Shown: in pieces, positions 1,763-58,647 of the stretch
Numbering within the stretch: the first letter of the stretch is position 1
Layout of the letters: the number at the start of each line of letters is the position of its first letter
NCBI GenBank assembly: GCA_035326025.1
Contig: DAOKYT010000001.1
Location: 8,163-72,162, forward strand
DNA: 64,000 bases
Direction of reading: 5' to 3'
Source: Tepidiformaceae bacterium
GTDB taxonomy: Bacteria > Chloroflexota > Dehalococcoidia > Tepidiformales > Tepidiformaceae
Notes under the pieces: generated by a model
What the model was told of the DNA's origin: nothing
The model's input: only the letters and a program-made list of their open reading frames with translations
Database searches by the model: none
Made by a program: the position numbers and the translations under genes

Positions 1763-4234
1763 ATGGCCGATAGGTTCGACAAGTTCACCGAGCGAGCACG
1801 CCGCGTGCTGACGCTCGCACAGGAAGAAGCGCATCGCTTCAACCATAACTATATCGGCACCGAGCACATCCTCCTCGGACTGGTGCGCGAAGGCGACGGC
1901 GTGGCCGCCAAGGTGCTCGCCAACCTCGGCGTCGAACTCAACAAGGTCCGCTCCGCCGTCGAGTTCATCATCGGCCGCGGCGATCGCACCGTCCTCGGCG
2001 AAATCGGCCTCACGCCCCGCGCCAAGAAGGTCATCGAGCTCGCCGTCGATGAGGCACGACGGCTCAATCACAGCTACATCGGCACCGAGCATCTGCTGCT
2101 TGGCCTGGTGCGCGAGGGCGAAGGCATCGCCGCGGGCGTGCTCGAAAGCCTCGGGGTCAACCTCGAGCGTGTTCGCGCCGAAACCACGCGCATCCTCAGC
2201 CAGTCGGCCCCCCAGGCCGCCAGCGCCGGCGCCGGCGCACGCCAGGCAACCCGCACACCGACCGTCGACCAGCTGGGTATCGACCTGACGGCCGCCGCCC
2301 GCAATGGCCAGCTCGACCCGGTCATCGGCCGCTCCAACGAGCTGGAACGTGTCGTCCAGATCCTTTCGCGCCGCACCAAGAACAATCCCGTGCTCATCGG
2401 CGAGCCCGGTGTTGGGAAGACGGCCATCGCCGAGCTCCTGGCTCAGCGCATCGTCTCTGGCGACGTACCCGAGACGCTGCAGGGCAAGCGCCTCCTCACC
2501 CTCGATATCGGCTCGCTCGTTGCGGGCACCAAATACCGCGGCGAATTCGAGGAGCGCCTGAAGAAGGTCATCGAGGAGATCAAGGGCTCCGGCAACTGCA
2601 TCCTCTTCATCGATGAGCTGCACATGCTCGTTGGCGCGGGGGCGGCCGAAGGCGCGGTCGACGCGGCAAACATCCTGAAGCCCTCGCTTGCCCGCGGCGA
2701 GCTGCAGTGCATCGGCGCCACCACCCTTGACGAGTATCGCAAGCACATCGAGCGCGACGCCGCGCTCGAACGCCGCTTCCAGCCGGTCATGGTCGAACAA
2801 CCCACGGTCGAAGAGACCATCGAGATCCTCAGGGGCATCCGGCCGCGCTACGAAGAGCACCACAAGCTCAAGATCAGCGATGCCGCTCTCACCAGCGCCG
2901 CCGAACTCTCGGCCCGCTACGTCAGCGACCGCTTCCTTCCCGACAAGGCGATCGACCTCATCGATGAGGCCGCGAGCCGCGTCCGCATCCGGCGCGCCGC
3001 CACCCCGCCATCCCTCAAGGAAGCCATGAAGGGGCTCGAAAGCCTCCGCCGCGAGAAGGACCAGGCCATCTCGTCGCAGCAGTACGAGTACGCCGCCGAA
3101 CTGCGCGACCGCGAGCTCAAGCTCCAGGACAAGATCAAGGAGATGGGCGAGTGGGAGGAAGGCGAGGAAGGCATCGCCACCCCCGTCGTCACCGAGGAAG
3201 ATGTCTCCGAGGTCGTCTCCATGTGGACCGGCATCCCGGTCGCCCGCATCGCGAGCGAGGAAAGTGCCCGCCTGCTCAGAATGGAAGAGCAGCTCCGGGG
3301 ACGCGTCATCGGCCAGGACGAAGCAATCGAGACCATCGCCCGCGCCGTCCGCCGCGCCCGCGCCGGCCTCAAGGACCCGCGCCGCCCGATTGGTGTGTTC
3401 CTCTTCTGTGGCCCCACAGGCGTTGGCAAGACCGAGCTCGCCCGGGCGCTCGCCGAGTTCATGTTCGACTCGCAGGACAACATGATTAAGCTCGACATGA
3501 GCGAATTCAGCGAGAAGCACACCGTCTCCCGGCTCGTCGGGGCCCCTCCGGGCTACGTCGGTTACGACGACGGCGGCCAGCTCACCGACACCGTCCGGCG
3601 CAAGTCCTACTGCCTCATCCTCCTCGACGAGATCGAGAAGGCGCACCCGGAAGTCTTCAACCTGCTCCTCCAGATCTTCGACGAAGGCCGCCTGGCCGAC
3701 GCGAAGGGCCGCAAGGTTGATTTCCGCAACACCATCATCATCATGACCTCCAACGTGGGGTCCGACCTCATCAAGAAAGACTCGGGCCTTGGCTTCTCAA
3801 CCACCACGGAGGAAGTCAAGACATTCGAAGACCGCTACCAGCGCATGAAGGACAAGGTGCTCACCGAGCTGAAGAACGTCTTCAAGCCGGAGTTCCTGAA
3901 CCGCATCGATAGCACGGTCGTCTTCCGCTCGCTCTCGCGTGAGGATATTCGCCGGATCGTCGATAACGAGCTGCGCAAGGTGGAAAAGACCCTCCTCCAG
4001 AAGGGCATCCGCCTCGAAGTCACCGATGCCGGCAAGGACTGGCTGGGCGAAAAGGGCTACGACCCGGCGTTCGGCGCCCGCCCGTTGCGCCGCGTCATCC
4101 AGGACAACATCGAAGACAAGCTCAGCGAAATGTTGCTTTCAGGCGAATTCGGCCAGGGCGACCTCGTCAAGGTCGACGCGGCCGATGGCGGCCTGAAGAT
4201 CGAACCCGTGCGCGAGCCGGCGGCAGTCGGCTAG
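1763..4234 (+). CDS. clpC: ATP-dependent Clp protease ATP-binding subunit ClpC
   Basis: 823 aa. Duplicated Clp-N repeat ([16 protein letters not shown].., [16 protein letters not shown]..), two AAA+ modules with Walker A motifs GEPGVGKT and GPTGVGKT, and a UVR-like linker. GGAGAAGGA RBS. Confidence 0.93.
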
Positions 4235-4577: not shown

Positions 4578-7500
4578 ATGACCACTACGCGTGACGTGGT
4601 GCGAGCGGGGGCTTTTTCCCCGCTCGAAGTCAAGACCTACGGACAGATCCCCAACGTCCTCGACCTCCCCAACCTCATCAAAATCCAGATCGATGCCTTC
4701 GACTGGTTCAAGCGGGAAGGTCTTCGGGAACTCCTCAATGAGATATCCCCCATCCAGGACTTCACCGGCTCGAAGATGGACCTCATCTTCGGCGACTACG
4801 AGTTCCGCGAGCCCAAGCACCCCATGGACGAATGCCGCGAGCGCGACCTCACCTACGCGGCCCCGCTGTTCGTCGATGTCGAGCTCCGCATTAAGGACTC
4901 CGGCGAAATCAAGGAACAGCGCCTCTTCTTCGGCGACTTCCCCCTGATGACCGACCGCGGCACGTTCATTATCAACGGCGCCGAGCGCGTCGTGGTCAGC
5001 CAGCTCGTGCGCTCACCCGGCGTGTACTACACCATCGAAACCGACGCAGCCACGGGCAAGCGCCTCTGCCACGCAAAGCTCATCCCCAACCGCGGCGCCT
5101 GGCTCGAATTCGAAACCTCGAACCGCGATGTGCTCTATGTGAAGGTCGACCGCAAGCGGAAGATCCCCGTAACCACGCTCATCCGGGCAATCGATGTCCC
5201 GGGCCTGCTCCCCGGCGACAAGGACAACGGCCGCTTCGCCAAGTACTGGGCCGCGCTTGAATCGGGCGAAGACCGCGCCCGCGACGCCGCGCTGCGCGAA
5301 CTCGAAACCGAGCTTGGCACCGATGAGCGCCTGCTCGCGATGTTCGAGGCCGTCGACACCAGCGACATTCACCAGTTCGTGCCCACCACGATTTCGAAGG
5401 AACCCCGCGAACCCGTCGTGAAGGATAAGCACGATGCGCTCCTCGAGTTCTACCGCAAGATCCGCCCGGGCGACCCCCCGACCCACGACAACGCGCGAAA
5501 CCTCCTGAAGACCCTCTTCTTCGAGCCGCGCCGTTACGACCTGGGCCGCGTGGGCCGGCATAAGCTCAACACCCGTCTCGAACTCGGCGACCCCACCCAG
5601 CAGCGCTGGCTCCGGCCATACGACCTGGTCAGCATCGTCCGCGAGCAGATCAACATCAACAACGGCCGCGGCCATGGGGACGATATCGACCCCCTCGGCA
5701 ACCGCCGCGTGCGTGCCGTCGGCGAGTTGATCCAGCAGCAGTTCCGCGTGGGCCTCCTGCGCATGGAGCGTGTTGTCCGCGAGCGCATGACCATCACCGA
5801 CCCGGAAGAGGCAACGCCCAGCGCCCTCATCAACATCCGGCCCGTCGTCGCCGCTATGAAGGAGTTCTTCGGCGGAAGCCAGCTCTCCCAGTTCATGGAC
5901 CAGACGAATCCGCTCTCGGAGCTGAACCACAAGCGGCGTCTGAGCGCGCTCGGCCCCGGGGGCCTCTCCCGTGACCGCGCAGGCTTCGATGTGCGCGACG
6001 TCCACCACAGCCACTACGGCCGCATCTGCCCCATCGAGACCCCCGAAGGCCCGAACATCGGCCTCATCGGATCGCTCGCAACCTACGCCCGCCTCAACGA
6101 ATTCGGCTTCATCGAGACGCCCTACCGCCGCGTTGTCCGCGAGATGGTCTCCACTGACCCGAACCTCGTGGGCCGCTTCCTCCGCCAGGATGCCCTCGAC
6201 GACAATGGCAACCTGATTGGCAAGGCCGGTGACCGCATCGACGAGGCGCTCGCCAGGAAGCTCGCCGCTGCCGGCCGCACCGTCGCCATTCGGCCCTGGG
6301 TCACGAACGAAATCGTCTACCTGACCGCTGACCAGGAGGATAAGTGGAAGGTCGGCCAGGCGAACACGGTGCTCGACGAGGACGGGCACTTCGTCAGCGA
6401 GCGCGTCGAAATCCGTATCTACGAGAAGTTCCAGACCGTCCACCCGGAAGAAGTCGACTTTATCGATGTCTCGCCGAAGCAGATGGTCTCGGTGGCCACG
6501 GCGCTCATCCCCTTCCTCGAACACGATGATGCGAACCGTGCGCTCATGGGCGCCAACATGCAGCGCCAGGCCGTGCCCCTGGTGCGCCCCGAAGTACCGC
6601 TCGTCGGCACCGGCATGGAACGCCGCACCGCCGTCGATAGCGGCCATGTCAAGACCGCCGCCGGCGACGGCGAGGTTATCGAGGCCTCCGGCAACCGCAT
6701 CCGCATCCGCTACGACGACCCGGACCTGGGCGAGGTGACCTACCCCTTGACCAAGTTCACCCGGTCCAACCAGGGTACCTGCCTGAACCACCGGCCGATC
6801 GTCGTCCGCGGCCAGCGCGTGACGAAGGACCAGCCCATCGCCGATAGCTCGAGCACCCAGGGCGGCGACCTCGCACTCGGTCAGAACGTCCTCGTCGCCT
6901 TCATGAGCTGGGAAGGCTACAACTTCGAGGATGCGATCATCATCTCGCAGAACCTGATCCGCGAGGACAAGTTCACCTCCATCCACATCGAGAAGCACGA
7001 GGTGGAGGCCCGCCAGACCAAGCTCGGCGACGAGGAAATCACCCGCGACATCCCGAACGTCGGCGAGGAAAGCCTGAGCCAGCTCGACGAGGATGGCATC
7101 ATCCGTATCGGCGCCGAAGTCCGCGAGGGCGACATCCTCGTGGGCAAGATCACCCCAAAGGGCGAGACCGAGCTCACGGCCGAGGAGAAGCTCCTCCGCG
7201 CCATCTTTGGTGAGAAGGCTCGCGAAGTGAAGGACACGAGCCTGCGCGTGCCACACGGCGAACGGGGCAAGGTCATCGATGTAAAAGTCTTCGACCGGAA
7301 CAACCACGAGGGCCTGCCGGCAGGCGTGAACAAGCTCGTCCGCGTGAGCATCGCCCAGCGGCGGAAGCTCTCCGAGGGCGACAAGATGGCCGGCCGCCAC
7401 GGGAACAAGGGCGTCATCAGCCGGATTCTCCCGCGCGAAGACATGCCCTACCTCGAGGACGGGACGCCGATCGACATCATCCTGAACCCGATCGGCGTGC

Positions 7501-12951: not shown

Positions 12952-13947
12952 TCACGCAGCCGTTCGCACAAGCGCGACGGCGGTGCCGAGCCGTTCCGCA
13001 AGGGCCTCCGCGGTCTCGCTGATTCGGTGCCCGGTGACCAGGCCGCGCGCCTCGTAACCCGCCTTGCGGAGAATCGCGGCCCGGGTCGCGGCGCGTTCGA
13101 CACTTTCGGTGTTAACGGTGTGCGAGACCTCGACCGCGAAGAAGAGTTCGCGGGCGGTGTCGCGATCCCGGCCCTGCACCAGGAAGTCCAGCGCGGCAAT
13201 CTGCCGGACCTCGTCCTCGGTCACGAGCCCGCCCGCCAGCGCCTCGTCGAGCAGGGCCAGGTCGTCCACCAGCACTTTTCGCGGCCTCCGTGCCCATTCG
13301 CGCAGCCAGTTGCCCAGGTTGCGTTCGAACCTGGCCTCCAGGAGATCGCCGCGGATGTTCGCAAGTTCGCCGTCGACGCGATCCTGCCGCTCCACCATGG
13401 CACGTACCGCGGACGTGAGCTGATCCACCTGCTCGGCCAGCTGGTCGACGCGCCCGGTGAGCTGGTCCATCCGCACGGCCAGCTGATCGACGCGCCCGGT
13501 GAGCTGGTCCATGCGCTTGGCCAGCTGGTCGACGCGCTCGGTGAGCTGGTCCACCCGCACGGTGAGCTGCTCCATCCGCACGGCCAGCTGGTCGACGCGC
13601 TCGGTGAGCTGGTCCATCCGCTCGGCCAACTGATCGACGCGCCCGGTGAGCTGCTCCATCCGCACGGCCAGCTGGTCCATCCGCACGGCCAACTGGTCGA
13701 CGCGCTCGGTGAGCTGGTCGACGCGCCCGGTGAGCTGGTCCATCCGCACGGCCAGTTGCCCCATGCGCTCGCCGACCTGCTCCAATCGGTCCGCAACTCG
13801 GCCGAGCGTGCCCTCGACCCTGTCCATCCGCGAAGGGATCTCAAGGACTTGCTCCCCGAGAATCAGGGGCCGCAACTGGGCCCGCCACTCCGGGTGCTCG
13901 GAGAGGAGCCGCACAAGGTCTGTGAAGTCCGTCAGGGTGAATGCCAC
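12952..13947 (-). CDS. heptad-repeat (coiled-coil) protein with a nuclease-like C-terminal domain; function unknown
   Basis: 331 aa. N-terminus MAFTLTDFTDLVRLLSEHPEWRAQLRPL, then about 24 consecutive heptads of type R-[VM]-[DE]-Q-L-[TA]-x, then a C-terminal about 120 aa containing ..LDFLVQGRDRD..ELFFAVEVSH..VERAATRAAILRKAG. Lies 32 nt downstream of the radical-SAM gene on the same strand. Confidence 0.7.
   Translation of the reverse strand: MAFTLTDFTDLVRLLSEHPEWRAQLRPLILGEQVLEIPSRMDRVEGTLGRVADRLEQVGERMGQLAVRMDQLTGRVDQLTERVDQLAVRMDQLAVRMEQLTGRVDQLAERMDQLTERVDQLAVRMEQLTVRVDQLTERVDQLAKRMDQLTGRVDQLAVRMDQLTGRVDQLAEQVDQLTSAVRAMVERQDRVDGELANIRGDLLEARFERNLGNWLREWARRPRKVLVDDLALLDEALAGGLVTEDEVRQIAALDFLVQGRDRDTARELFFAVEVSHTVNTESVERAATRAAILRKAGYEARGLVTGHRISETAEALAERLGTAVALVRTAA
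13411..13767 (-). repeat. tandem 21-nt repeat array (about 17 near-identical units), in frame within the CDS
   Basis: On the + strand the unit reads (G/C)AGCTG(G/A)TC(G/C)A(C/T)(G/C)CGC(N)CGG(T/C), repeated head to tail. Degenerate copies extend the array to about 13327-13830. Confidence 0.9.
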
Positions 13948-25133: not shown

Positions 25134-25209
25134 TGGCGCCCCCGGCAGGATTCGAACCTGCGGCCAGACGCTTAGAAGGCGCCTGCTCTATCCCCTGAGC
25201 TACGGGGGC
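25134..25209 (-). tRNA. tRNA-Arg (anticodon TCT), CCA encoded
   Basis: The reverse complement GCCCCCGTAGCTCAGGGGATAGAGCAGGCGCCTTCTAAGCGTCTGGCCGCAGGTTCGAATCCTGCCGGGGGCGCCA folds as a cloverleaf. It has a 7-bp acceptor stem, anticodon loop CTTCTAA and T-loop GGTTCGAATCC. Confidence 0.9.
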
Positions 25210-35584: not shown

Positions 35585-35835
35585 ACCGTTTCACGTTCCA
35601 GGGTGTCGCCGCCCCGGCTGCGAAAGCGCCGGAAACCGCCAGGCTGCCCACCTGATTGCGTGCCCCCGGCACCCCTGAAGTGCGTCGCGGGACGTTCCCT
35701 TCGTCCGGGGTGTCGCCGCCGGGGCTGGCGTACCACCCGGCGCGTAGCTGCTCATCGTGGGTTGCCGCCGCCGGGAACGCCGGGAGCCCGGGCTATCCAC
35801 CTGCCAGGGGCCGCCAGGCTCGTGCTTGAGGAAGA

Positions 35836-36090
35836 TCACCTTCCGCTCGCCCGCCGCGAACTGGTGGCCGTCGCGGAAAGGCTCCTCGCGGGGACTGCCG
35901 GCCACCGCCGTGCAGGTTTCGCGGTTCTCGATGCGCGGAAGGACTCGCCCCCGGTGCCGCCCTGGATGTTCTCCTCCACGATGAAGGTGGCCTCACGCCG
36001 AGCGTCGAGGGCGTTCATCACCTCCGGCCGGCTCACGGTGATGGTTGCGACATGGTTATCCACCACCCACGAGATGAACTGCATGGTCAA
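35836..36090 (-). pseudogene. possible decayed gene: crotonase-like N-terminus that loses frame after about 50 codons
   Basis: MQFISWVVDNHVATITVSRPEVMNALD resembles an enoyl-CoA hydratase N-terminus, but the GxGxxFcxGxD region never follows. The G/C-at-position-3 signal switches to another frame near 35930 (..IENRETCTAVAGSPREEPFRDGHQFAAGERKVIFLKHEPGGPWQVD). Confidence 0.3.
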
Positions 36091-36473
36091 TTTTCGATTG
36101 CCGACTTCCGATTTCCGATTGACGCGCGCGCCTTCAGTGTGCGCTTGGATGCGACCGTCATCGCAAGGACCTCATCCGCCTCCTGACGGATTGGGGCGAC
36201 GCGCACTTCAGGGGCGAGTCCACTCGCGACCAGGACGTCCAGCCAGTACAGCGTTTCATCAGCCTCCTCCTCCACGATCCCAAGCTTGGCGATGAGGTCG
36301 TTCACAGACCGGGCTCTGCATGAGGCTCGGTAGTTTGCCCCGACCGAGGTGGCCGACCGAATGAGTTGCCGCGCTATGACGTCCGCAGAACGGGTCCTCG
36401 GCAGTTCGTCGCTCAGCCGGATCGCTGCAAGGCCGATGGCTGTAGCCCGTTTGATGAAGGTCTGCTCATCCAT
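36087..36473 (-). CDS. four-helix-bundle protein (23S rRNA intervening-sequence protein / Avd-like family)
   Basis: Starts MDEQTFIKRATAIGLAAIRLSDELPRTRSADVIARQLIRSATSVGANYRASCRARSVNDLIAKLGIVEEEADETLYWLDVL. The Q-L-x-R-[SA]-[AS]-x-S-x-x-x-N pattern followed by E-E-x-x-E-x-x-x-W is typical of PF05635/TIGR02436 as I recall it. The C-terminal residues ..SIGNRKSAIEN are translated repeat-arm sequence. Confidence 0.78.
   Translation of the reverse strand: MDEQTFIKRATAIGLAAIRLSDELPRTRSADVIARQLIRSATSVGANYRASCRARSVNDLIAKLGIVEEEADETLYWLDVLVASGLAPEVRVAPIRQEADEVLAMTVASKRTLKARASIGNRKSAIEN
36095..36121. repeat. inverted-repeat arm (tandem heptamers), 3' side of the 4HB gene
   Basis: CGATTGC CGACTTC CGATTTC CGATTG. 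Positions 36102-36121 are the perfect reverse complement of 36484-36503. Confidence 0.9.
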
Positions 36474-36483
36474 TTGACCACCC

Positions 36484-36518
36484 CAATCGGAAATCGGAAG
36501 TCGCCGAATCGGCAATCA
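36484..36518. repeat. inverted-repeat arm (tandem heptamers), 5' side of the 4HB gene
   Basis: CAATCGGAAATCGGAAGTCGCCGAATCGGCAATCA. It pairs with 36095-36121 (20 bp perfect, then a bulge, then GATTGCCG). It overlaps the stop codon (36516-36518) of the ThDP enzyme. Confidence 0.9.
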
Positions 36519-38162
36519 CTTGAATTCGTAGCCGCCCTTCACGCCGGCCGGCTCCGGGTCGGTCAGCACGTTCACGCACGCCGGCTTGCCGCTGTTGAAG
36601 GCTCGCTCGATCGCGGCCTTGATCTGCTCCGGGTGTTCCACCAGCTCGCCGTGCCCGCCAAGCCCTTCCACGACCTTGTCGTACCGCGCGTTGTCGCCGA
36701 GCACCGTCGCGGGCGTCCGGCCCTCGCCGTACTGCGCCTTCTGCCCGACATAAATCTGGTGCCAGCAGCGGTCGTTCCCGATGACCGACACGATCGGCAT
36801 CTTAAATCGCACGAAGGTATCGAAGTCGAAGCCGTTCAGCCCGAAGGTCCCGTCGCCATTCACCATCAGGACCTTCTTCTCCGGCACGGCCACGCTCGCC
36901 GCCATGCAGAAGCCCGTGCCGACCCCGAGGGTGCCGAAGGGGCCCGGGTCCATCCACTGGCCGGGGTTGTTCACGGGCAGCACGCTCGCCGCCAGGGCCA
37001 CGATATCGCCGCCATCACCGACGACGATCGTATCGTCGTCCACGAACTCGGCGATTTCCTTACACAGGCGAAGTGGATGGATCGGCACGGCATCCGAGTT
37101 CATGAACACTTCCCGCTGGGCGTCGGCCTGCCCTTCGAGCCCGCGCAAGTACTGCATCCACTCCGCGTGGTTGCCCTTGCCAATCTCCCCCGTGAGTTGC
37201 AACAGCGCCTGCCGGATGTTCGCCTCGATGCCGATAGAGAAATCCCGGTTCCGCCCGATATCGCGGGGGTCGATGTCGATCTGGATGACCTTCGCTTCCG
37301 GGTTCCACGCTGGCGGCTGGCCGTACTTCAGCCGGAAGTCGATCGGCGTCCCCAGGATCACGATCACGTCGGCCTGGGCGAATGCCGGCTTGCGCGAGAG
37401 CGAGAAGAAGTTCGGGTTGTCCTGTCGCAGTGTGCCGCGACCCATCGCGTTCGTGTACACCGGCACATCGGCCGCCTTCGCGAATTCCGCCAGTTCCTTG
37501 TGAGCGCGGTGCCAGAACACCCCCGACCCGGCCATCACCATCGGCTTCGATGCCCCCTTGATCATCGCCGCTGCCTGCCTGATCAGGTTCGGGTCGCCCA
37601 TGATTTCGCCGGTGGGCCGGTAGTTGGCCGGCCATACCACCGAATCCTCATCCACCCGCCCGAAGAGCACGTCCGAAGGCACCTGCAGGAACGTCGGCCC
37701 GTACCGCCCGGTCATCGCCTCGCGGAACGCCATCGCCATGTAGTAGGGCAGCCGGCGCGTCTCGTACACCGTCTGCGACCACTTCGTGATCGGCTGCATC
37801 ATGCCGCCGAGTTCGATGTCCTGGAGCGACCCCATGTCGTACTGGCGGAGCGGCGACCGCCCGCCAATGACTACCATCGGGCTCGATGCCTGGTAGGCAT
37901 TCGCGACCGCGGTCACCACATCGGTTACGCCCGGGCCGGCCGTCACCACAGCCACTCCCGGCTTGAACGTGATGCGCGAGTACCCGTCGGCCGCATGCCC
38001 GGCCGATTGCTCGTGCCGCGTGTCCACGATCCCGATGCCGTTGTTCAGGCAACCCTCGTAGATGTTCTGCACATGGCCGCCAGAGAGCGTAAAGATGTGG
38101 CCGATGCCTTCCTGCTTGATCATGCGCGCGATGATTTCGCCGCCGTCGATCATGTTTCCCAT
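36516..38162 (-). CDS. thiamine-diphosphate-dependent enzyme (acetolactate synthase large subunit / oxalyl-CoA decarboxylase / 2-hydroxyacyl-CoA lyase family)
   Basis: Start trimmed to [30 protein letters not shown] (GAGGAA RBS); the upstream 235 codons of the ORF-track frame are not protein-like. ThDP motif GDGGD..(x)..[12 protein letters not shown]-like region. 548 aa. Confidence 0.88.
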
Positions 38163-39623: not shown

Positions 39624-39879
39624 GTGGTCCTCAATCTACCGTGCCGAAAGGGGCCCTGTCGCGCCTCTTGACGCTTGCGAACCCTGAGCGAAGATGCCGG
39701 GAGCGACACCAATCGCGACGCCTAGTCCGCTTCGGCGGGACGGGGGACCCAGTTCTCGGGGCGAATTCGCAAGGGCGGCTTCCCGGTGGGAGCCGGCGAC
39801 GGCGAAACGGCTATCTCCGGCCGTAGCCCGGCAGCTAACCTCGGCGGCGTGGGAAGACCTCATTCGAGGCCTCCTGTCC

Positions 39880-45494: not shown

Positions 45495-45518
45495 GCGCAC
45501 CTGGTGCTCGTCATCCGA

Positions 45519-45595
45519 ATCGCTTTCCTCCGCACGTATGAACGTGGTCAGGTTCAAGGGGTCTGATCTCAGCCCATCAGGGCACCCCCAGCGAT
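45519..45595 (-). promoter_or_regulatory. TPP (THI-box) riboswitch aptamer
   Basis: The minus strand reads AUCGCU GGGGUGCCC ugau GGGCUGAGA ucag ACCCCUUGAACCUGA CCACG uucaua CGUG CGGAGGAAAGCGAU. It has the P1 helix AUCGCU/AGCGAU, the CUGAGA and ACCUGA boxes, and the GGAGG(A)AA pyrophosphate-sensing end. Confidence 0.88.
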
Positions 45596-45794
45596 CCCGA
45601 ACAGCTGTGAAATTGTCGATCCTTACGCTACACCCGCCGCGCGGCTGGCTGCAATCACCGGCCCGGTTACCCGGGTGTCACGCAGCTCTCACGCTCGTCC
45701 ACCCGCTGGCGACCCTCGGCTACCCTGCCATCAACGATAATCGGCCCGCGGGCGCCGCGTTACGCGCCGCCGGAATCAACTCGGCCGGGAGAGC

Positions 45795-52524: not shown

Positions 52525-54597
52525 TCAGCCCGCCGCTTCGGGTAGCTCGAACTCCACCACGATCTCCGACTGTGACGAGATCGGAGTCACCTGGACCGGC
52601 ACCACCAGCTCGAACAACCCCACGAAGCAGAGCGCCTCCGCGCCGGTCCGGCAGTAGTACGCCGAGACGGTCGCCGTCAAAGCGGCGGTCCCTTCGGACA
52701 ATACGACCGGCACCGGGAACGAGACGGCCTTCTCGTCGGTCGACCAGGTCAGGGTGCGCTCCCCGAGCTCCACCACCGAACCGTTGGAGGTCGCCAGCTC
52801 GAGCCTCGATGGGGCCGAAGCATTGAGATGGAAGTCCTCCGGGGTGGTGATCGTGAAGCGCAGGTTGCTCGCCCCCGGGGTCACCCGGCGCTCCGGGAGT
52901 TCGACTCTGGTCACGTGGCCGGGTGTCGCGCCGGCGATGGCCGAAAGGTTCGTGAGCGTCAGCGTCGATACCGACCCGGTCACCGGGTCGTAGACGCGCA
53001 CCAGGTGATTGTTCGTGTCGGCGATGTACACGAGCCCTCCGCCCGCGGAGAGTCCACCGGGTTCGGCGAACTTCACCTCCCCGGCAACCCCGTCGGACCA
53101 GCCCCTCTCCGAGCCCGCGGCCGTCCCCACCTCCCCGGAGACTGGCTCGTACACGCGCAGGCGGTGGTTATACGTGTCTGCCACATAGACTGCCCCATCG
53201 AGGAGCGCGAGGCCCTGCGGGTGCTGGAACTGGGCCTGCCGCCCGCGCCCGTCGCGGTCCCCGTAGTCGAAGAGTCCCGTGCCCACCAGCGTCTCCACAT
53301 CGCCTTCGCCCGCCAGCGGCACCCGCCGCAGCGCGCTCGATTCGGGGTCGACCCAGTACAGCCACTCTCCGTCCGTTGCCAGGCCGGAGGGCTGTGCCAG
53401 CGTCGCCATCGTCAGCCGCGGGCCATCGTCGATGCCTTCGCGGCTTGTCCCGGCGAACACCGAGACCTGCCGCGTAAGCAGGTCCAGGGACCAGATCTGG
53501 TGGATACCGGCCATGGAGATGAAGAGGTCGCCATCGGCCAGGACCACGTCCCATGGAGATGCCATCGCGGTTTCCAGCGCCGGCGCGGGACCCACCGGCC
53601 GCCGCTGGAGCTGCTGGCCGGTGCCCGCGAGGGTGCTCGTTTCGCCGCTCGCCAGGTCGATGGCCCGCACGGCGTGGTTGCGCGTGTCGGCGACAAAGAG
53701 CGTCGCGCCATCGGCCGAGAGAGCCAGGCCGTGGGGCTGGCGGAACGCGGCTTCGCCCGGGCCGCCATCAGCGAACCCCTCTTTGCCCGTCCCGAAGGCG
53801 CGCACCAGCGTGCCATCGAGTCTCGCCTCCAGGATGCGGTGGTGCCCGCTGTCGGCGATGAAGAGGCGGCCGCGCTCACCATCCGCCAGGACCTTGCCCG
53901 GGTAGGAAAGCACGGCCGTCGCCGGGGCGGCGGCCAGCGAGAGCGGGAGGGGCTTCGGCGAAAGCTGCCCCTTTTCGCCGAATTCGGCCACGAGCGATGC
54001 CATGATTGGCTGGAAGAGCGGGTACACGCCTTCGCCCGCGTGCCCGCCAACCAGGTTTCCGGCCGGGTCGATGAGCACCAGTGTCGGCCACGCGCTCGCG
54101 CCGAACGTCCGCCACACCACGAACTCGGGGTCGTTGATCACGGGGTGTTCGATGCCGAAGCGGCGGACGGCCTCGAGAATGCTCTCGTCCTCGTGCTCGG
54201 TCGCGTACTTCCCGGAGTGCACACCGATGACCACGAGGTTGTCGCCGAACTCCGCCTCGAGCCGTTTCAGGTCCGGGATGATGTGCTGGCAGTTGATGCA
54301 GCCCAGCGTCCAGAAGTCCAGCAGCACCAGCCGGCCCTTGAGTTCATCCAGCGTCAGCGGCCGCTCAACGTTGAACCAGGTGACATCGCCCGGAATCGCC
54401 GGGGCGGGCTCCGCCCCCGCCCATGAGCGCCGCGGCTCTTGTTGCTCCGCCACGTCAGTACCTCCGGCCGGTTCGGGCCGTGATCCCCCGCCGCTGCACG
54501 AGGCAACAGCCAGCGCGAGGGCCAGCGCGACACATGCAACCATGAGGCGGAGCGCCGGGAGGCGCGTGGGGCACGGCGTCCGAAGCATCCCCGCCAT
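52525..54597 (-). CDS. thioredoxin-like domain + NHL-repeat beta-propeller lipoprotein
   Basis: Lipobox LAVASCSGGG. Redoxin motif FWTLGCINCQH. Repeated NHL-type units (..P.GLA.....LYVADT.NH.IR..). Start trimmed to ATG 54597 (GGGAG RBS); the ORF-track start at 54780 would overlap pheS. Confidence 0.8.
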   Translation of the reverse strand: MAGMLRTPCPTRLPALRLMVACVALALALAVASCSGGGSRPEPAGGTDVAEQQEPRRSWAGAEPAPAIPGDVTWFNVERPLTLDELKGRLVLLDFWTLGCINCQHIIPDLKRLEAEFGDNLVVIGVHSGKYATEHEDESILEAVRRFGIEHPVINDPEFVVWRTFGASAWPTLVLIDPAGNLVGGHAGEGVYPLFQPIMASLVAEFGEKGQLSPKPLPLSLAAAPATAVLSYPGKVLADGERGRLFIADSGHHRILEARLDGTLVRAFGTGKEGFADGGPGEAAFRQPHGLALSADGATLFVADTRNHAVRAIDLASGETSTLAGTGQQLQRRPVGPAPALETAMASPWDVVLADGDLFISMAGIHQIWSLDLLTRQVSVFAGTSREGIDDGPRLTMATLAQPSGLATDGEWLYWVDPESSALRRVPLAGEGDVETLVGTGLFDYGDRDGRGRQAQFQHPQGLALLDGAVYVADTYNHRLRVYEPVSGEVGTAAGSERGWSDGVAGEVKFAEPGGLSAGGGLVYIADTNNHLVRVYDPVTGSVSTLTLTNLSAIAGATPGHVTRVELPERRVTPGASNLRFTITTPEDFHLNASAPSRLELATSNGSVVELGERTLTWSTDEKAVSFPVPVVLSEGTAALTATVSAYYCRTGAEALCFVGLFELVVPVQVTPISSQSEIVVEFELPEAAG

Positions 54598-54679
54598 CGT
54601 ACGCTCCCGCCCCGAATGGCCGCGTAAGGCCCCTCGGCGACGGACGCTAACCGCGCCACGCCCTATACTTCGAAGTCCC

Positions 54680-55738
54680 ATGCCTGATCGAGATCCGCGT
54701 ATCGAGAGCCTGCGCACCGAGGCGCTGGCAGCGCTCGCCTCGGCTTCCGACGAAGCCGGGCTGGAGCAGTGGCGCATCACCTATTTCGGTCGCCAGGATG
54801 GCCGGGTGAGCGCGCTCCTCCGATCGATCAAGGATGTCCCGGCCAGCCAGCGCGCGGCCTTTGGCGCCGCCGCGAACGCCGCCAGGGCCGAGCTTGAAGC
54901 CGCCTTCGATGCCCGCCGCGATGAGCTCAAGCGAGCGGCCCTGGAAGCGCTCACCACCCGGGCCGCCCTCGACGTCACCCTGCCCGGCAGGCCTCAGCCC
55001 CTTGGCCGCCTTCACCCGGTGACGCAGACCATGCGCGATTGCCTTGCCGCCTTCAGGGAGATGGGCTTCCGTGTCGCCGAAGGCCCCGAGGTCGAGTGGG
55101 CCCGCTATAACTTCGATGCCGCCCGCATTCCCGAGGATCACCCCGCCCGCGACATGTGGGACACCATCTGGGTGAACACGCTCGTCGATGGGCAGCGCAA
55201 CATGCTCCTTCGCACGCACACCACACCGAACCAGATCCGGGTGATGGAACGCACACCGGAACCACCGGTGCGCGTCGTGGTGCCCGGCAAGTGCTACCGC
55301 CAGGAAGCCACCGACGCGACGCACGAGTGGATGCTCACCCAGATCGAGGGCCTGGCGGTCGACGAAGGGGTCCGCCTGACGGACCTTAAGGGCGTGCTCT
55401 ACGGCTGGGCCCGCAAGATGTTCGGCGCCGACCGCAAGATCATCTTCCACCACAGTTACTTCCCCTTCGTCGAGCCCGGCATCGAGATGGCGATCGACTG
55501 CTTCATCTGCCGTGGCAATGGGGCCTCCTGCCACACCTGCCACGGCACCGGCTGGATCGAGATCCTTGGCGCCGGGATGGTCCACCCCGAAATCATCGAT
55601 AACGCCGGCTACGACTCCTCCCGGGTGACCGGTTTCGCATTTGGCGTTGGCGTCGAACGCGTCGCCCTCCTCCGCTGGGGCATCGAAGACATCCGGAACT
55701 TCTACGCAAACGACATCCGCTTCCTGAGCCAGTTTTAG
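54680..55738 (+). CDS. pheS: phenylalanine--tRNA ligase alpha subunit
   Basis: Starts MPDRDPRIESLR... Contains HPARDMWDT, LLRTHTTPNQIR, and FPFVEPG..GAGMVHP class II motifs. Start trimmed from ORF-track 54002. Confidence 0.95.
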   Translation: MPDRDPRIESLRTEALAALASASDEAGLEQWRITYFGRQDGRVSALLRSIKDVPASQRAAFGAAANAARAELEAAFDARRDELKRAALEALTTRAALDVTLPGRPQPLGRLHPVTQTMRDCLAAFREMGFRVAEGPEVEWARYNFDAARIPEDHPARDMWDTIWVNTLVDGQRNMLLRTHTTPNQIRVMERTPEPPVRVVVPGKCYRQEATDATHEWMLTQIEGLAVDEGVRLTDLKGVLYGWARKMFGADRKIIFHHSYFPFVEPGIEMAIDCFICRGNGASCHTCHGTGWIEILGAGMVHPEIIDNAGYDSSRVTGFAFGVGVERVALLRWGIEDIRNFYANDIRFLSQF

Positions 55739-55743
55739 GAGCT

Positions 55744-55770
55744 GTTGGCCGTTGGCTATTGGCCGTTAGC
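55744..55770. repeat. inverted-repeat arm (tandem heptamers), 5' side of the 4HB gene in the pheS-pheT spacer
   Basis: GTTGGCC GTTGGCT ATTGGCC GTTAGC begins 6 nt after the pheS stop. Confidence 0.88.
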
Positions 55771-55786
55771 AAGGAGCACAGGCTTT

Positions 55787-56230
55787 ATGCGACCGTTTCG
55801 GGAACTCAGAGTCTGGGAGGAATCCCATCAGCTCACCCTTGATGTTTACCGCGCGACGGGCTTGTTCCCGAATGACGATCGCTTTGCGCTGACGAGTCAA
55901 CTGCGCCGCGTTGCATATTCCGCGCCGTCTAACGTCGTCGAGGGCACATCGAGGGGAGACACGGAGTGCCGTCAGTTTCTCAGAGTTGCGCTCGGTTCTG
56001 CAGCCGAGCTGGAGCACGGCCTTCCTCTTGCGCGCGACATTGGCTACCTCGCCAACGCAGAACACGACTCCCTCACCGCAAGGACTCTGACTGTCAAACG
56101 GATGCTGAACGCCTTCATCGCCCGCATGAACGCAACTATCGATTCCCGCGCCAACAAGCTGCCCGTGGCCGGTAGCCAGCAGCCAGCGGCCAACGGCCAA
56201 CGGCCCGGCACGATGGAGCCGGCACCATGA
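55787..56230 (+). CDS. four-helix-bundle protein (23S rRNA intervening-sequence protein / Avd-like family)
   Basis: AAGGAG RBS. MRPFRELRVWEESHQLTLDVYRATGLFPNDDRFALTSQLRRVAYSAPSNVVEGTSRGDTECRQFLRVALGSAAELEHGL matches the PF05635/TIGR02436 pattern as I recall it. The C-terminal tail ..PVAGSQQPAANGQRPG.. is translated repeat-arm sequence. The stop overlaps the pheT ATG (ATGA). Confidence 0.8.
   Translation: MRPFRELRVWEESHQLTLDVYRATGLFPNDDRFALTSQLRRVAYSAPSNVVEGTSRGDTECRQFLRVALGSAAELEHGLPLARDIGYLANAEHDSLTARTLTVKRMLNAFIARMNATIDSRANKLPVAGSQQPAANGQRPGTMEPAP
56171..56201. repeat. inverted-repeat arm (tandem heptamers), 3' side of the 4HB gene
   Basis: The reverse complement reads GTTGGCC GTTGGCC GCTGGCT GCTGGCT ACC. 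13 nt (56189-56201) are perfectly complementary to 55744-55756, and the extension pairs with mostly G-U wobbles. Confidence 0.88.
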
Positions 56231-58647
56231 AACTGTCCCTCAACTGGCTTCGCGACTTCGTTGAAGTCGACCTGCCCGTTCCCGAGCTGGCCCGGCGCCT
56301 CATCGACGCCACGGCGGAGGTGGAGGGCTGGGAAACCATCGGGGCCCAATGGGATCCGGACAAGATCCGCGTGGCAAAGGTTCTCGCCGTTGAGCCCCAC
56401 CCCAACGCCGACCGCCTGCGCCTGGTCACCGTCGACGCCGGGAGTGGCACGCGGCAGGTGGTCTGCGGCGCGCCAAATGTGGCGGTGGGGCAAAAGGTGG
56501 CCTTCGCCACCGAGGGCGCGCGGCTGCGTGATGGCCACACTGGCGAGCCCACCGTGCTCAAGCTCCGCCCCATCCGCGGGGTCGAGTCCGCCGGCATGGT
56601 CCTCAGCGAGAAGGAGCTCGGCCTGAGCGAGGAACACGAAGGCATCCTCGTCCTGCCAGGGGACGCCGAGATTGGCCGCCCGCTCGCCGAGGTCCTCGGC
56701 GATGTGGTCTTCGACATCTCCACCTGGGCCAACCGCGCCGACCTGCTTGGCGTCCTCGGATTCGCCCGCGAGACGGCGGTGCTCACCGGCAAGGTGCTGC
56801 GCGAGCCCGATCGCTCGTACTCCGTCTCGGAGCGCCATGCCGGCGACTGCATCTCGGTGACTATCGATGCCCCCGACCTCTGCCGCCGCTTCACCGCCTC
56901 CGTCATCGAGAACGTCACCGTCGCGCCATCGCCCCGGTGGATGCAGGAACGCCTGCTCAAGGCCGGCATGCGGCCAATCAACAACGTCGTCGATATCACC
57001 AACTACGTGATGCTCGAGACGGGACAACCCCTCCACGCATTCGACTATGACCTCGTGCGCGGCAGGAAGATCGTCGCGCGGCGGGCCTCGCCCGGCGAAA
57101 AGCTGGTCACTCTCGATGGCGTCGAGCGCGAGTTCGACGCCGAAATGCTGCTCATCTGCGATGGTGGCGGGCCCGTCGGCATCGCGGGCGTCATGGGCGG
57201 CGGCAACAGCGAGGTGAGCGAACGCACCCGGAACGTCCTGCTCGAAGTCGCGAATTTTCGCGCCGGCTCCATCCGGCGCACGTCCACGCTCTTGAAGCTC
57301 CGCACGGAGGCGTCGCTGCGGTTCGAAAAGGGCATCGGCCCCGAGATGGCGGAGTATGCACAGCGCCGGGCCCTCCACCTGTTCGCACAGCTCACCGGCG
57401 GCTCGGTCGCCGCCGGCCTCGTCGATGTCTATCCCGGCAAGCAGCCACGGCCCACCATCATCGTCGAGTCCGAGCGTATCGCCCGGGTCCTGGGGATCGA
57501 TGTTCCCGTGGACGACGTGCGCCGGATCCTCACCGGCCTCGGGTTTGGTTGCCACTTCGTCCCACCCGGCACGTACAGCGTACAGCCGCCCGATTGGCGC
57601 CCGGACGTGGAAATCCCGGACGACGTCATCGAGGATATCGGCCGCATCCACGGGTACGACAAGCTTCCCGCGACCAGGTTGCGCGGTACCCTCCCCGACC
57701 CCGAGCCCAACCCGCTCATGGACCTCCGCGAACGCGTGCGCGACCTGGCCGCCGCAACCGGGTTCCAGGAGATCATCACCTACACCCTCACCGAAAAGGC
57801 AAAGCTCGACCTCATGGTGCCGCCTGGTGACCCGCTCCGCCACGAGCCACTGGCCGTCGTAAACCCGGTCGCGGCCCAGCACACGTACCTGCGCACCTCC
57901 GTCCGTCCCTCGGTGCTGGAAACGTTCGCAACGAACCGGCGGCATGCCGAGACCGGCCTGCGGCTGTTCGAGATCGGCTTCGAGTACCTGCCCGCGGAGG
58001 CCGACCTCCCCCACGAGCGTCCCGTGCTGTGCGCGGTCCTTGGCGGCCCGAGGGAGACGCGCTGGGGCCGGCCCGCCGCGGAGCACCTCGACTTCTTCGA
58101 CGCGAAAGGCGCCGTCGAGGCCATCTTCGACCGTCTCGGCATCCGCGTAACATTCGCGCCGCGCAACGAATTCGGCCTGCTGGAAGGCCACACGGCCGAG
58201 GTGCGCGCCGGCAAGGATGTGCTCGGCATCGTTGGCCAGGTGCACCCCGAGACCGCACGCGCATTTGACATCGACGAGCCCGTCTTCCTCGCCGAACTCT
58301 GGCTCGAGGACATGGTGCGGCATCTTCCCGAGCGCCCCGAGTACGCTGCGCCGTCGAAGTTCCCGGAGGTGCGGCAGGACCTCGCGCTCGTCGTCGACGC
58401 CGCAACCCCCGCTGGCCGCGTCCTGGAGCTCGTGCGCTCTCACCGGAGTGGCGGCGTCAGGATCCGTGCCGATGTCTTCGACGAGTACCGCGGCGCCGGC
58501 GTCCCCGAGGGCAAGAAGTCGCTTGCGCTGCGGCTGCGCTTCCAGGCCGGCGATCGGACGCTGACCGACAGCGATGTCGCGAAAATCCAGCAAGGGCTGC
58601 TGGTGCGGCTCGGGAAGGAACTCGGCGCCTCGCTGCGCGGCGGCTGA
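56227..58647 (+). CDS. pheT: phenylalanine--tRNA ligase beta subunit
   Basis: 806 aa. MKLSLNWLRDFV N-terminus, tRNA-binding OB domain, B3/4 and B5 domains, and a FDX-ACB C-terminus. Confidence 0.95.
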   Translation: MKLSLNWLRDFVEVDLPVPELARRLIDATAEVEGWETIGAQWDPDKIRVAKVLAVEPHPNADRLRLVTVDAGSGTRQVVCGAPNVAVGQKVAFATEGARLRDGHTGEPTVLKLRPIRGVESAGMVLSEKELGLSEEHEGILVLPGDAEIGRPLAEVLGDVVFDISTWANRADLLGVLGFARETAVLTGKVLREPDRSYSVSERHAGDCISVTIDAPDLCRRFTASVIENVTVAPSPRWMQERLLKAGMRPINNVVDITNYVMLETGQPLHAFDYDLVRGRKIVARRASPGEKLVTLDGVEREFDAEMLLICDGGGPVGIAGVMGGGNSEVSERTRNVLLEVANFRAGSIRRTSTLLKLRTEASLRFEKGIGPEMAEYAQRRALHLFAQLTGGSVAAGLVDVYPGKQPRPTIIVESERIARVLGIDVPVDDVRRILTGLGFGCHFVPPGTYSVQPPDWRPDVEIPDDVIEDIGRIHGYDKLPATRLRGTLPDPEPNPLMDLRERVRDLAAATGFQEIITYTLTEKAKLDLMVPPGDPLRHEPLAVVNPVAAQHTYLRTSVRPSVLETFATNRRHAETGLRLFEIGFEYLPAEADLPHERPVLCAVLGGPRETRWGRPAAEHLDFFDAKGAVEAIFDRLGIRVTFAPRNEFGLLEGHTAEVRAGKDVLGIVGQVHPETARAFDIDEPVFLAELWLEDMVRHLPERPEYAAPSKFPEVRQDLALVVDAATPAGRVLELVRSHRSGGVRIRADVFDEYRGAGVPEGKKSLALRLRFQAGDRTLTDSDVAKIQQGLLVRLGKELGASLRGG

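Follow-up and report, generated by a model that had tools for sequence, protein, structure and literature searches.

The window examined here is a 64,000-nt stretch of DNA from a Tepidiformaceae bacterium (GCA_035326025.1, contig DAOKYT010000001.1, positions 8,163-72,162, forward strand). Its pheS and pheT genes are separated by a cassette composed of a small four-helix-bundle (4HB) gene and two inverted arms made of tandem heptanucleotides. A preliminary description of this DNA had placed the pheS stop, the pheT start, a 488-nt spacer, and an open reading frame (ORF) with its ATG at 55787 and an AAGGAG ribosome-binding site, and all of these coordinates are confirmed on the sequence. The junction is made up of the following features.

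54680..55738, + strand: pheS, 352 aa, upstream host gene (PF01409 and PF02912; stop TAG 55736-55738)
55741..55770, + strand: left (5') arm, GTTGGCC/GTTGGCT/ATTGGCC/GTTAGC from 55744; period 7, 3.4 copies; begins 2-5 nt past the pheS stop
55771..55776, + strand: AAGGAG Shine-Dalgarno (SD) sequence of the cassette ORF, directly 3' of the left arm and 10 nt ahead of the ATG
55787..56230, + strand: 4HB ORF, 147 aa, with core residues 1-124 (PF05635/TIGR02436, AlphaFold2, Foldseek)
56175..56204, + strand: right (3') arm, GCCAGCA GCCAGCG GCCAACG GCCAACG GC; reverse complement of the left arm, within the ORF tail
56214..56217, + strand: GGAG SD of pheT, outside the arm; GGAGG...ATG also remains in empty sites
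56227..58647, + strand: pheT, 806 aa, downstream host gene (PF01588, PF03483, PF03484, PF17759, PF03147)

The spacer holds a single ORF that runs from ATG 55787 to TGA 56228-56230, and its TGA overlaps the pheT ATG (ATGA). The SDs of the cassette ORF and of pheT both sit just outside the arms. Promoter and terminator prediction over 54400-56600 gave none. An Rfam search of the window returned no match at this cassette or at a second one described below, and a PADLOC search for defense systems returned no match.

The encoded protein belongs to the PF05635/TIGR02436 family, as had been claimed. It matches PF05635 with E=4.4e-27 and 94.8 bits (cut-off 33.8 bits) over 106/106 profile positions, and TIGR02436 with E=1.9e-25 and 89.2 bits (cut-off 24 bits). 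An AlphaFold2 model built on 37 homologues agrees with the family fold, has a predicted local distance difference test score of 92.7, and places helices at residues 8-24, 29-54, 58-84, and 90-124. Foldseek with this model recovers XCC0516 (2GSC, template modeling (TM) score 0.94-0.96), BT_0352 (2RLD, TM 0.81-0.88), and the diversity-generating retroelement (DGR) protein Avd (4DWL and 8UB7). In crystals the 4HB family protein is pentameric, and as Avd in the DGR ribonucleoprotein (RNP) it is RNA-binding. Residues 125-147 form a low-confidence predicted coil whose codons come from the right arm plus the pheT leader. Three-frame reading of the right arm yields the tail ..GSQQPAANGQRPG.., and the odd end of this ORF is thus arm sequence read through, as first proposed.

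The arms of this cassette are 30 nt each and 77 % complementary in a repeat search (81-97 % in orthologues). Counted by its heptamers, the right arm covers 56171-56201. Their duplex is calculated at -63.5 kcal/mol versus -45.2±4.5 for shuffles, about 4 standard deviations better, and the tandem-heptamer inverted arms of the preliminary description stand. The window contains 5 copies of the heptamer dimer versus 0.95 expected, and 4/5 copies lie within the arms. The extension of the stem had been said to pair mostly through G-U; this locus has 4 G·U and 3 A·C instead. Stricter array detectors missed even these arms, and a seed-and-extend scan for period-7 inverted pairs was used in their place.

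The window contains a second cassette of the same build on the minus strand, between a thiamine pyrophosphate (TPP)-dependent enzyme gene and the remnant of an enoyl-CoA hydratase (ECH) gene. Its features are listed here.

36516..38162, - strand: TPP-dependent enzyme gene, 548 aa, upstream host of cassette 2 (PF00205/PF02775; stop 36516-36518)
36484..36517, - strand: 5' arm, GATTGCC GATTCGG CGACTTC CGATTTC CGATTGG; begins on the TPP-enzyme stop codon
36087..36473, - strand: 4HB ORF, 128 aa (PF05635 E=1.6e-14, 54.4 bits)
36090..36121, - strand: 3' arm, CAATCGG AAATCGG AAGTCGG CAATCG; complementary to the 5' arm
36004..36084, - strand: ECH gene remnant, first 27 codons (tblastn with the ECH protein of locus L174)

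Cassette 2 as a whole covers 36087-36517 and is built of CGGAAAT-type heptamers; Tandem Repeats Finder reports period-7 arrays at 36090-36120 and 36484-36517. The ORF tail ..ASIGNRKSAIEN is coded by the 3' arm, and the ORF stop lies 2 nt ahead of the ATG of the ECH gene. The minimum free energy (MFE) fold closes on the arms (z=-2.8), and the scan for period-7 inverted pairs gives 20 nt of the arms as 100 % complementary. Compared with its 84 %-identical orthologue in L174, the cassette shows a compensatory change, GATTGCC/GGCAATC to GATTTCC/GGAAATC. The TPP-enzyme protein is 95 % identical between the two genomes, and the ECH orthologue in L174 is 262 aa versus the 27 codons left in the window. 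Cassette 2 is intact although the downstream ECH gene has decayed (35585-36084, minus strand).

The proteins of the two window cassettes have no similarity detectable by phmmer, and their heptamers are also unrelated; it is therefore the architecture that recurs and not the sequence. A broad hidden Markov model search over the window found no 4HB ORFs beyond these two. GTTGGCC, CGGAAAT, and their complements contain GG at most and no G3 tracts, where a G-quadruplex takes four or more G3+ tracts. G-quadruplex formation is therefore not the common denominator of the arms.

Orthologous pheS-pheT junctions were surveyed with a PheS query and one genome per species, which gave 80 loci (designated by L numbers) from Dehalococcoidia or Tepidiformaceae-like metagenome-assembled genomes. 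In 24 distinct loci the spacer measures 448-513 nt and contains a 4HB ORF; many others have just 5-31 nt, and a few are of intermediate length. Every homologue of the first window protein that was looked up sits between pheS and pheT. Homologues down to ~47 % identity carry ANGQRPT-like tails, which are GGCCAAC in three frames. Seven-residue periodicity of the tails is no useful indicator of arms, which code for only ~9-10 residues.

Arm duplexes pair in 24/24 filled loci, at -49 to -97 kcal/mol versus -32 to -56 for shuffles. The heptamers are lineage-specific and always matched in the partner arm (GGCCGTT, GGCTGTT, GGCTGTC, GGCTCTT, AGCTGTT, AGTTACT, AGTCGTT, GGTCGTC). At consensus position 3 the two arms agree throughout, with C in 20 loci, T in 4, and 0 discordant. 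Covariation was assessed on 21-bp in-phase segments from 21 loci, with 500 shuffles and a slid partner as controls. Both sides have changed in 17/21 pairs. Double-change cells number 52 versus 19±4 in shuffles (0/500 reach this value), and the covariation score of 0.357 versus 0.209 collapses with the slid partner. The two arms change together. The left side of the L028 cassette (6087-6215) holds two heptamer arrays split by 'ccaggaggcgagcATGCGACCG', which is an SD and a 4HB ORF start; this double array resembles the product of a partial tandem duplication or of a nested insertion.

The 4HB protein is under purifying selection. The dN/dS of its core is 0.10-0.26 in unsaturated pairs versus 0.03-0.10 for pheS and pheT. 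In the pairs window/L001, window/L020, and L015/L017, dS of the cassette ORF is 0.17-0.37 versus 0.5-0.9 in the flanking pheS/pheT, and dN of the cassette ORF is similar to or higher than that of the flanks. The low dS may reflect synonymous-site constraint (RNA structure) or more recent sharing of the cassette.

The ORF stop (N-UGA) overlaps the pheT start in 18/24 loci (p=3.6e-5 versus one frame in three, with phylogeny not corrected for). The other 6/24 loci have an in-frame stop inside the heptamer itself. Because any heptamer indel changes the reading frame, this pattern argues that termination-reinitiation at pheT is under selection. The overlap points to preserved translational coupling, and it makes doubtful the earlier proposal that the stem uncouples pheS and pheT.

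The tree of PheS plus PheT has the cassette throughout one clade, outgroups without it, and empty sites nested among filled ones. Cleanly empty junctions measure 10-14 nt. The closest genome to the window, L014 (PheS 96 %), is empty and reads 'TAG gaggtacgcc GTG'. Remnants are also found: L043 keeps the left arm only, L047 the 3' end of the ORF and the right arm only, and L061 the left arm and an 'MKRF' start. At least 8 independent clean losses or remnants are counted among close relatives. Filled, empty, remnant, and replaced states occur among hosts whose PheS is 91-98 % identical, or 94-98 % for PheS/PheT, and the 4HB tree conflicts with the host tree. Replacement is seen in three pairs.

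L001 / L017: PheS 98.5 %, PheT 95.2 %, 4HB 52 % identity
L013 / L019: PheS 97.9 %, PheT 93.6 %, 4HB 47 % identity
L048 / L050: PheS 96.7 %, PheT 94.4 %, 4HB 58 % identity

In these pairs, nucleotide identity is 93-97 % until the pheS stop, falls to 35-70 % over the cassette, and is back up at the pheT start. Other pairs co-diverge with their flanks, e.g., the window and L001 (cassette 86.7 % versus 82-86 %). Vertical inheritance of the cassette, clean loss, decay to remnants, and replacement of the allele are thus all represented at this junction, and the breakpoints are the host stop and start codons. The empty sites and exact boundaries anticipated by the preliminary description are therefore present, with edges at the pheS stop and the pheT start.

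Other small genes are seen in or near this junction. The 445-460-nt pheS-pheT spacer of distant Dehalococcoidia was considered as the same element and rejected, being a glyoxalase/VOC-like gene of ~145 aa without heptamers (L071, L072, L077, L078, L081, L083). The presence of this gene in the same junction means that small genes have colonized the spacer on more than one occasion. Directly 3' of pheT, L008 (3734-3979) and L013 (5931-6429) carry toxin-antitoxin genes (Unstab_antitox, ParE), which is another variable spot.

The unit of gene plus arms is widespread. The PF05635/TIGR02436 family comprises 50,369 clusters at 50 % identity. The second cassette protein has >7,900 relatives in Chloroflexota, Nostoc, and others, many with NRKSEIE- or NPKSKIQ-like tails. 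A metagenome scan with this protein gave 80 loci, of which 51/80 have heptamer-built arms and 64 could be analyzed against shuffles. The arm score is above every shuffle in 33/64, and 30 of those have a period-7 autocorrelation >=0.7. Shuffles served as the control here; a mismatched-partner control was dropped as contaminated because ATTTTGG or ATTGCGG units are common to many cassettes. The metagenomic units vary (ATTTTGG, ATTTCGG, ATTGCGG, AATGCGG, ATTGTCG, others), yet are complementary within each cassette. A co-oriented upstream ORF ends -7 to +11 nt from the left arm in 23/33 loci, and 29/29 have a co-oriented ORF after the right arm.

A more sensitive scan, blind to genes, was run over all loci; of its 87 period-7 inverted pairs with a 250-700-nt loop, 81 enclose a 4HB ORF. 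Another 11 period-7 pairs have loops <150 nt and no ORF. Such hairpins, with loops of 15-130 nt, are located at L064 8779-8853, L130 298-394, L152 4552-4660, L138 2676-2753, and several sites of L126. They may be non-autonomous or decayed derivatives of the cassette, like the Xanthomonas and Geobacter pairs considered below. L177 carries two 4HB cassettes with different heptamers within 3 kb (3440-3990 and 6180-6800), both co-oriented with their neighbors (large protein, DUF1385, Ldh_2).

Xanthomonas XCC0516 is the closest protein with a solved structure, and its homologues are located between accB and accC. The array GGGAATC GGGAGTG GAGAATC GGGAATC begins 5 nt past the accB stop, and a complementary array abuts the accC ATG. 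The common layout is the host stop, a 5' arm of 3-5 tandem heptamers, an SD, a PF05635 ORF, a 3' arm that is usually translated as the disordered end of the ORF, the host SD, and the host start, in ~0.45-0.5 kb. The original suggestion of a possibly mobile cassette at an operon junction, resembling intervening sequences (IVSs), holds and extends well beyond the pheST locus. In the literature searched, no link of PF05635 genes to heptamer arms or operon junctions was found.

The window has several features outside the cassettes. A 331-aa ORF on the minus strand (12952-13947) contains a repeat at 13331-13875 of ~18-25 tandem 21-nt units that encode 7-residue repeats (..VDQLTER / MDQLAVR..); it is coiled-coil-like and unrelated to the cassettes. 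Three RNA features score above the Rfam gathering score.

45508-45599, - strand: TPP riboswitch
39709-39860, + strand: c-di-AMP (ydaO) riboswitch
25137-25209, - strand: tRNA

The observed anatomy, recurrence, arm covariation, purifying selection, frame maintenance, and presence, absence, and replacement of the cassette are read here, with somewhat more confidence than doubt, as those of an IVS-type hitch-hiker in host transcripts that occupies operon junctions and whose arms act as an mRNA helix. Such an element would be promoterless and ride inside host transcripts. In the pheST mRNA, the arms would pair to a ~30-bp helix, loop out the ORF, and bring the pheS stop beside the pheT SD and start. 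RNase III would probably act on this helix, by analogy with Coxiella. Ribosomes loading at the cassette SD would read through the 3' arm, melt the helix, terminate on A/GUGA, and pass to pheT. With such a hand-over, the insertion would not be polar. The 4HB protein probably binds the helix of its own element, as suggested by the pentameric Avd in the DGR RNP.

Several points weigh against a hitch-hiking mRNA element. The MFE fold of the full pheS-pheT spacer closes on the arms, with a whole-spacer z of only -1.58, which is not significant. Arm mismatches carry no RNA-strand signature: the pheST loci have 27 G·U, 33 A·C, and 26 transversions, the 33 metagenomic cassettes have 24 G·U and 15 A·C, and the pooled counts are 51 G·U versus 48 A·C. 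Sense and antisense duplex energies are equal (12/24 loci, p=0.94). With no G·U excess and equal strand energies, the sequences are silent on which molecule keeps the complementarity. Because the arm segments in the covariation analysis were those with the best complementarity, their paired percentage is inflated. The cassette boundaries showed no consistent target-site duplication, and no mobilizing enzyme was identified for the cassette. GGAG on both sides in some loci was considered as a target-site duplication and rejected; it does not occur on both sides in L013, L019, and L021, and is better explained as the retained pheT SD, which is also present in empty sites. Finally, an RNase III cut in the helix would remove the 4HB stop codon, so processing and full-length 4HB synthesis would be exclusive per molecule.

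The principal competing explanation places the role of the arms in DNA, and we consider it unlikely, though it is the strongest of the alternatives. The cassette would be a mobile or recombining unit whose arms form hairpins, cruciforms, or recombination sites, like repetitive extragenic palindromic (REP) sequences with RAYT, attC sites, or the ends of MITEs (miniature inverted-repeat transposable elements). The 4HB protein would be an accessory and the ORF-less hairpins non-autonomous forms. The lack of G·U bias favors this explanation, as do the equal sense and antisense energies. Replacement breakpoints also fall exactly at the element ends and not in flanking homology. However, no target-site duplication marks these ends, and the heptamer differs from one cassette lineage to the next, which a sequence-specific recombinase would not readily explain. 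The 11 ORF-less hairpins, the 70-75 inverted GGGAATC pairs in Xanthomonas (PMC4692102), and the ~53 junction pairs in Geobacter (PMC2700814) also count in its favor, and the only Xanthomonas 4HB gene examined has on its flanks the repeat that makes up the dispersed Xanthomonas pairs. The 4HB protein, however, has no nuclease or recombinase domain and no PADLOC or transposase match. Moreover, 80/81 enclosed ORFs have one orientation relative to the flanking genes, and no inverted copies were seen, though 30-bp inverted repeats could flip. The sole experiment on such a stem, in Coxiella, shows RNA cleavage.

The cassette could also be a domesticated regulatory insert from which the host profits, e.g., by an adjusted PheS:PheT ratio or mRNA stability, in which case the 4HB protein would bind RNA and regulate the operon it belongs to. 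Long retention over a family-level clade, purifying selection on the ORF, a frame kept such that the ORF ends on the pheT start, and a pheT SD kept outside the stem all agree with this explanation. We nevertheless hold it to be improbable. Close relatives, including the nearest, L014, have at least 8 independent clean losses or remnants, and alleles are swapped for others of 47-58 % identity. The unit is also present in unrelated junctions (TPP enzyme|ECH, accB|accC, many others), and cassette 2 persists with its downstream gene down to 27 codons. A last explanation treats the arrays as mutational by-products, i.e., slippage or G-quadruplex repeats, as suggested for Xanthomonas and Nostoc, that lie beside a small ORF and whose complementarity has no role. 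Slippage has been invoked for the bacterial excess of heptameric simple repeats, and G-quadruplexes for the GGGAATC arrays (PMC4692102), and copy number does vary among strains and loci. This explanation is largely refuted and very improbable, because the arms are always mutual reverse complements that covary, arm scores top every shuffle in 33/64 loci, 81/87 pairs spaced 250-700 nt enclose a 4HB gene, and GTTGGCC and CGGAAAT lack G3 tracts.

A wider form of the hitch-hiking mRNA element is offered tentatively, at less than even confidence. PF05635 genes and heptamer arms would together form one large, unrecognized class of element that colonizes operon junctions and rRNA helices, with rRNA IVSs as its first-seen members. 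The 4HB pentamer would bind the periodic helix of its own element and mediate RNA-level excision and/or copying to new sites, and ORF-less hairpins (Xanthomonas GGGAATC pairs, Geobacter paired sites, cyanobacterial STRR) would be non-autonomous derivatives. If true, it would account for the surplus of heptanucleotide repeats long observed in bacterial genomes.

To our knowledge, no function has been known for PF05635/TIGR02436 since 1993 outside DGR Avd. We likewise know of no explanation for the origin and mobility of rRNA IVSs, or for the excess, in Xanthomonas, Nostoc, and Geobacter, of heptanucleotide arrays that lie between co-oriented genes, often as inverted pairs. If the cassette is their common unit, the three become one testable question. 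What is new here is that the gene-plus-arms unit is widespread, was not described as such in the searched literature, and represents an IVS-type element outside rRNA. It would show how an insertion can sit in an essential, translationally coupled operon without polarity. It also bears on annotation, as many 'four helix bundle proteins' have odd low-complexity C-terminal tails that consist of arm sequence in three frames. The accB-XCC0516-accC locus of Xanthomonas campestris is a tractable system with a crystal structure of the protein.

Among known systems, the cassette differs from transposons and MITEs in that its terminal repeats are not common to both window cassettes and no consistent target-site duplication is found. 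REP and REPIN sequences with their RAYT genes, reportedly described by Nunvar in 2010 and by Bertels and Rainey in 2011, are said to consist of a single-copy gene between inverted short repeats that are also dispersed as intergenic hairpins. The cassette is similar in having one gene flanked by an inverted pair of a short repeat, which is also dispersed as hairpin pairs. In contrast, RAYT is a Y1 transposase with catalytic motifs that the 4HB protein lacks, REPs are fixed 20-40-nt palindromes and not tandem heptamers, and dispersed ORF-less copies are rare in the Chloroflexota studied.

Avd is the accessory protein (bAvd) of DGRs and forms a pentamer that holds structured RNA in the DGR RNP. 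The cassette protein has the same 4HB fold (Foldseek TM 0.80-0.84) at a sequence identity of 14-18 %. The window protein has a weak PHROG Avd match, and orthologues have precomputed PF22296 matches. Unlike Avd, the cassette has no reverse transcriptase neighbor, being flanked by pheS and pheT in 24/24 loci. No template/variable direct repeats were found in the window. With neither a reverse transcriptase nor such repeats, DGR membership is rejected.

Heptanucleotide arrays have been noted in several bacteria. Mazel is said to have described the cyanobacterial STRR heptanucleotide repeats in 1990. Xanthomonas has 186 GGGAATC arrays, 70-75 as convergent pairs, that were read as G-quadruplexes with no role assigned, and Nostoc has GGGGAYT arrays (Rehm 2015, PMC4692102). 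Geobacter metallireducens has ~53 pairs of tandem 7-9-mers at gene junctions (proB|proA, moaA|mosC), proposed as possible IHF/HU sites (Aklujkar 2009, PMC2700814). Like the cassette arms, these arrays consist of tandem 7-mers (two Geobacter classes have 8-9-mers), are often arranged in convergent inverted pairs, lie in spacers of co-oriented genes (proB|proA, moaA|mosC, pecE|pecF), and vary in length among strains. The published arrays differ in having no cargo gene, and most pairs are <=~100 nt apart, so they hold no ORF. The 4HB (PF05635) family goes unmentioned in these two papers and in that on the Coxiella IVS (PMC4990558).

The closest comparison is the ORF-containing 23S rRNA IVS, known from Leptospira and Coxiella burnetii. 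The Coxiella IVS is 428 nt long, has a 28-bp terminal stem, an S23p ORF, and 2-3 tandem GACAGAT in its 5' arm, and is cut by RNase III at the first heptamer repeat (PMC4990558). Its presence is sporadic, with evidence of horizontal acquisition and a variable heptamer copy number (PMC4990558). The pheST cassette sits in an intercistronic mRNA junction and not in helix 9, 25, or 45 of 23S rRNA, and the window has no rRNA; it is therefore IVS-like in build and not an rRNA IVS. Its ORF is preceded by a strong SD, evolves under purifying selection, and terminates on the next start codon, whereas Coxiella S23p is thought to be unexpressed and decaying. RNase III cleavage is shown for Coxiella and others, whereas for the pheST cassette it would be expected by analogy. 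The two are nevertheless alike in most of their build: the same PF05635 family, sporadic presence with evidence of horizontal acquisition, a similar size (428 nt in Coxiella versus 450-510 nt for the pheST cassettes), terminal inverted repeats that form a stem of ~28-30 bp, and a 5' arm with tandem heptamers in variable copy number.

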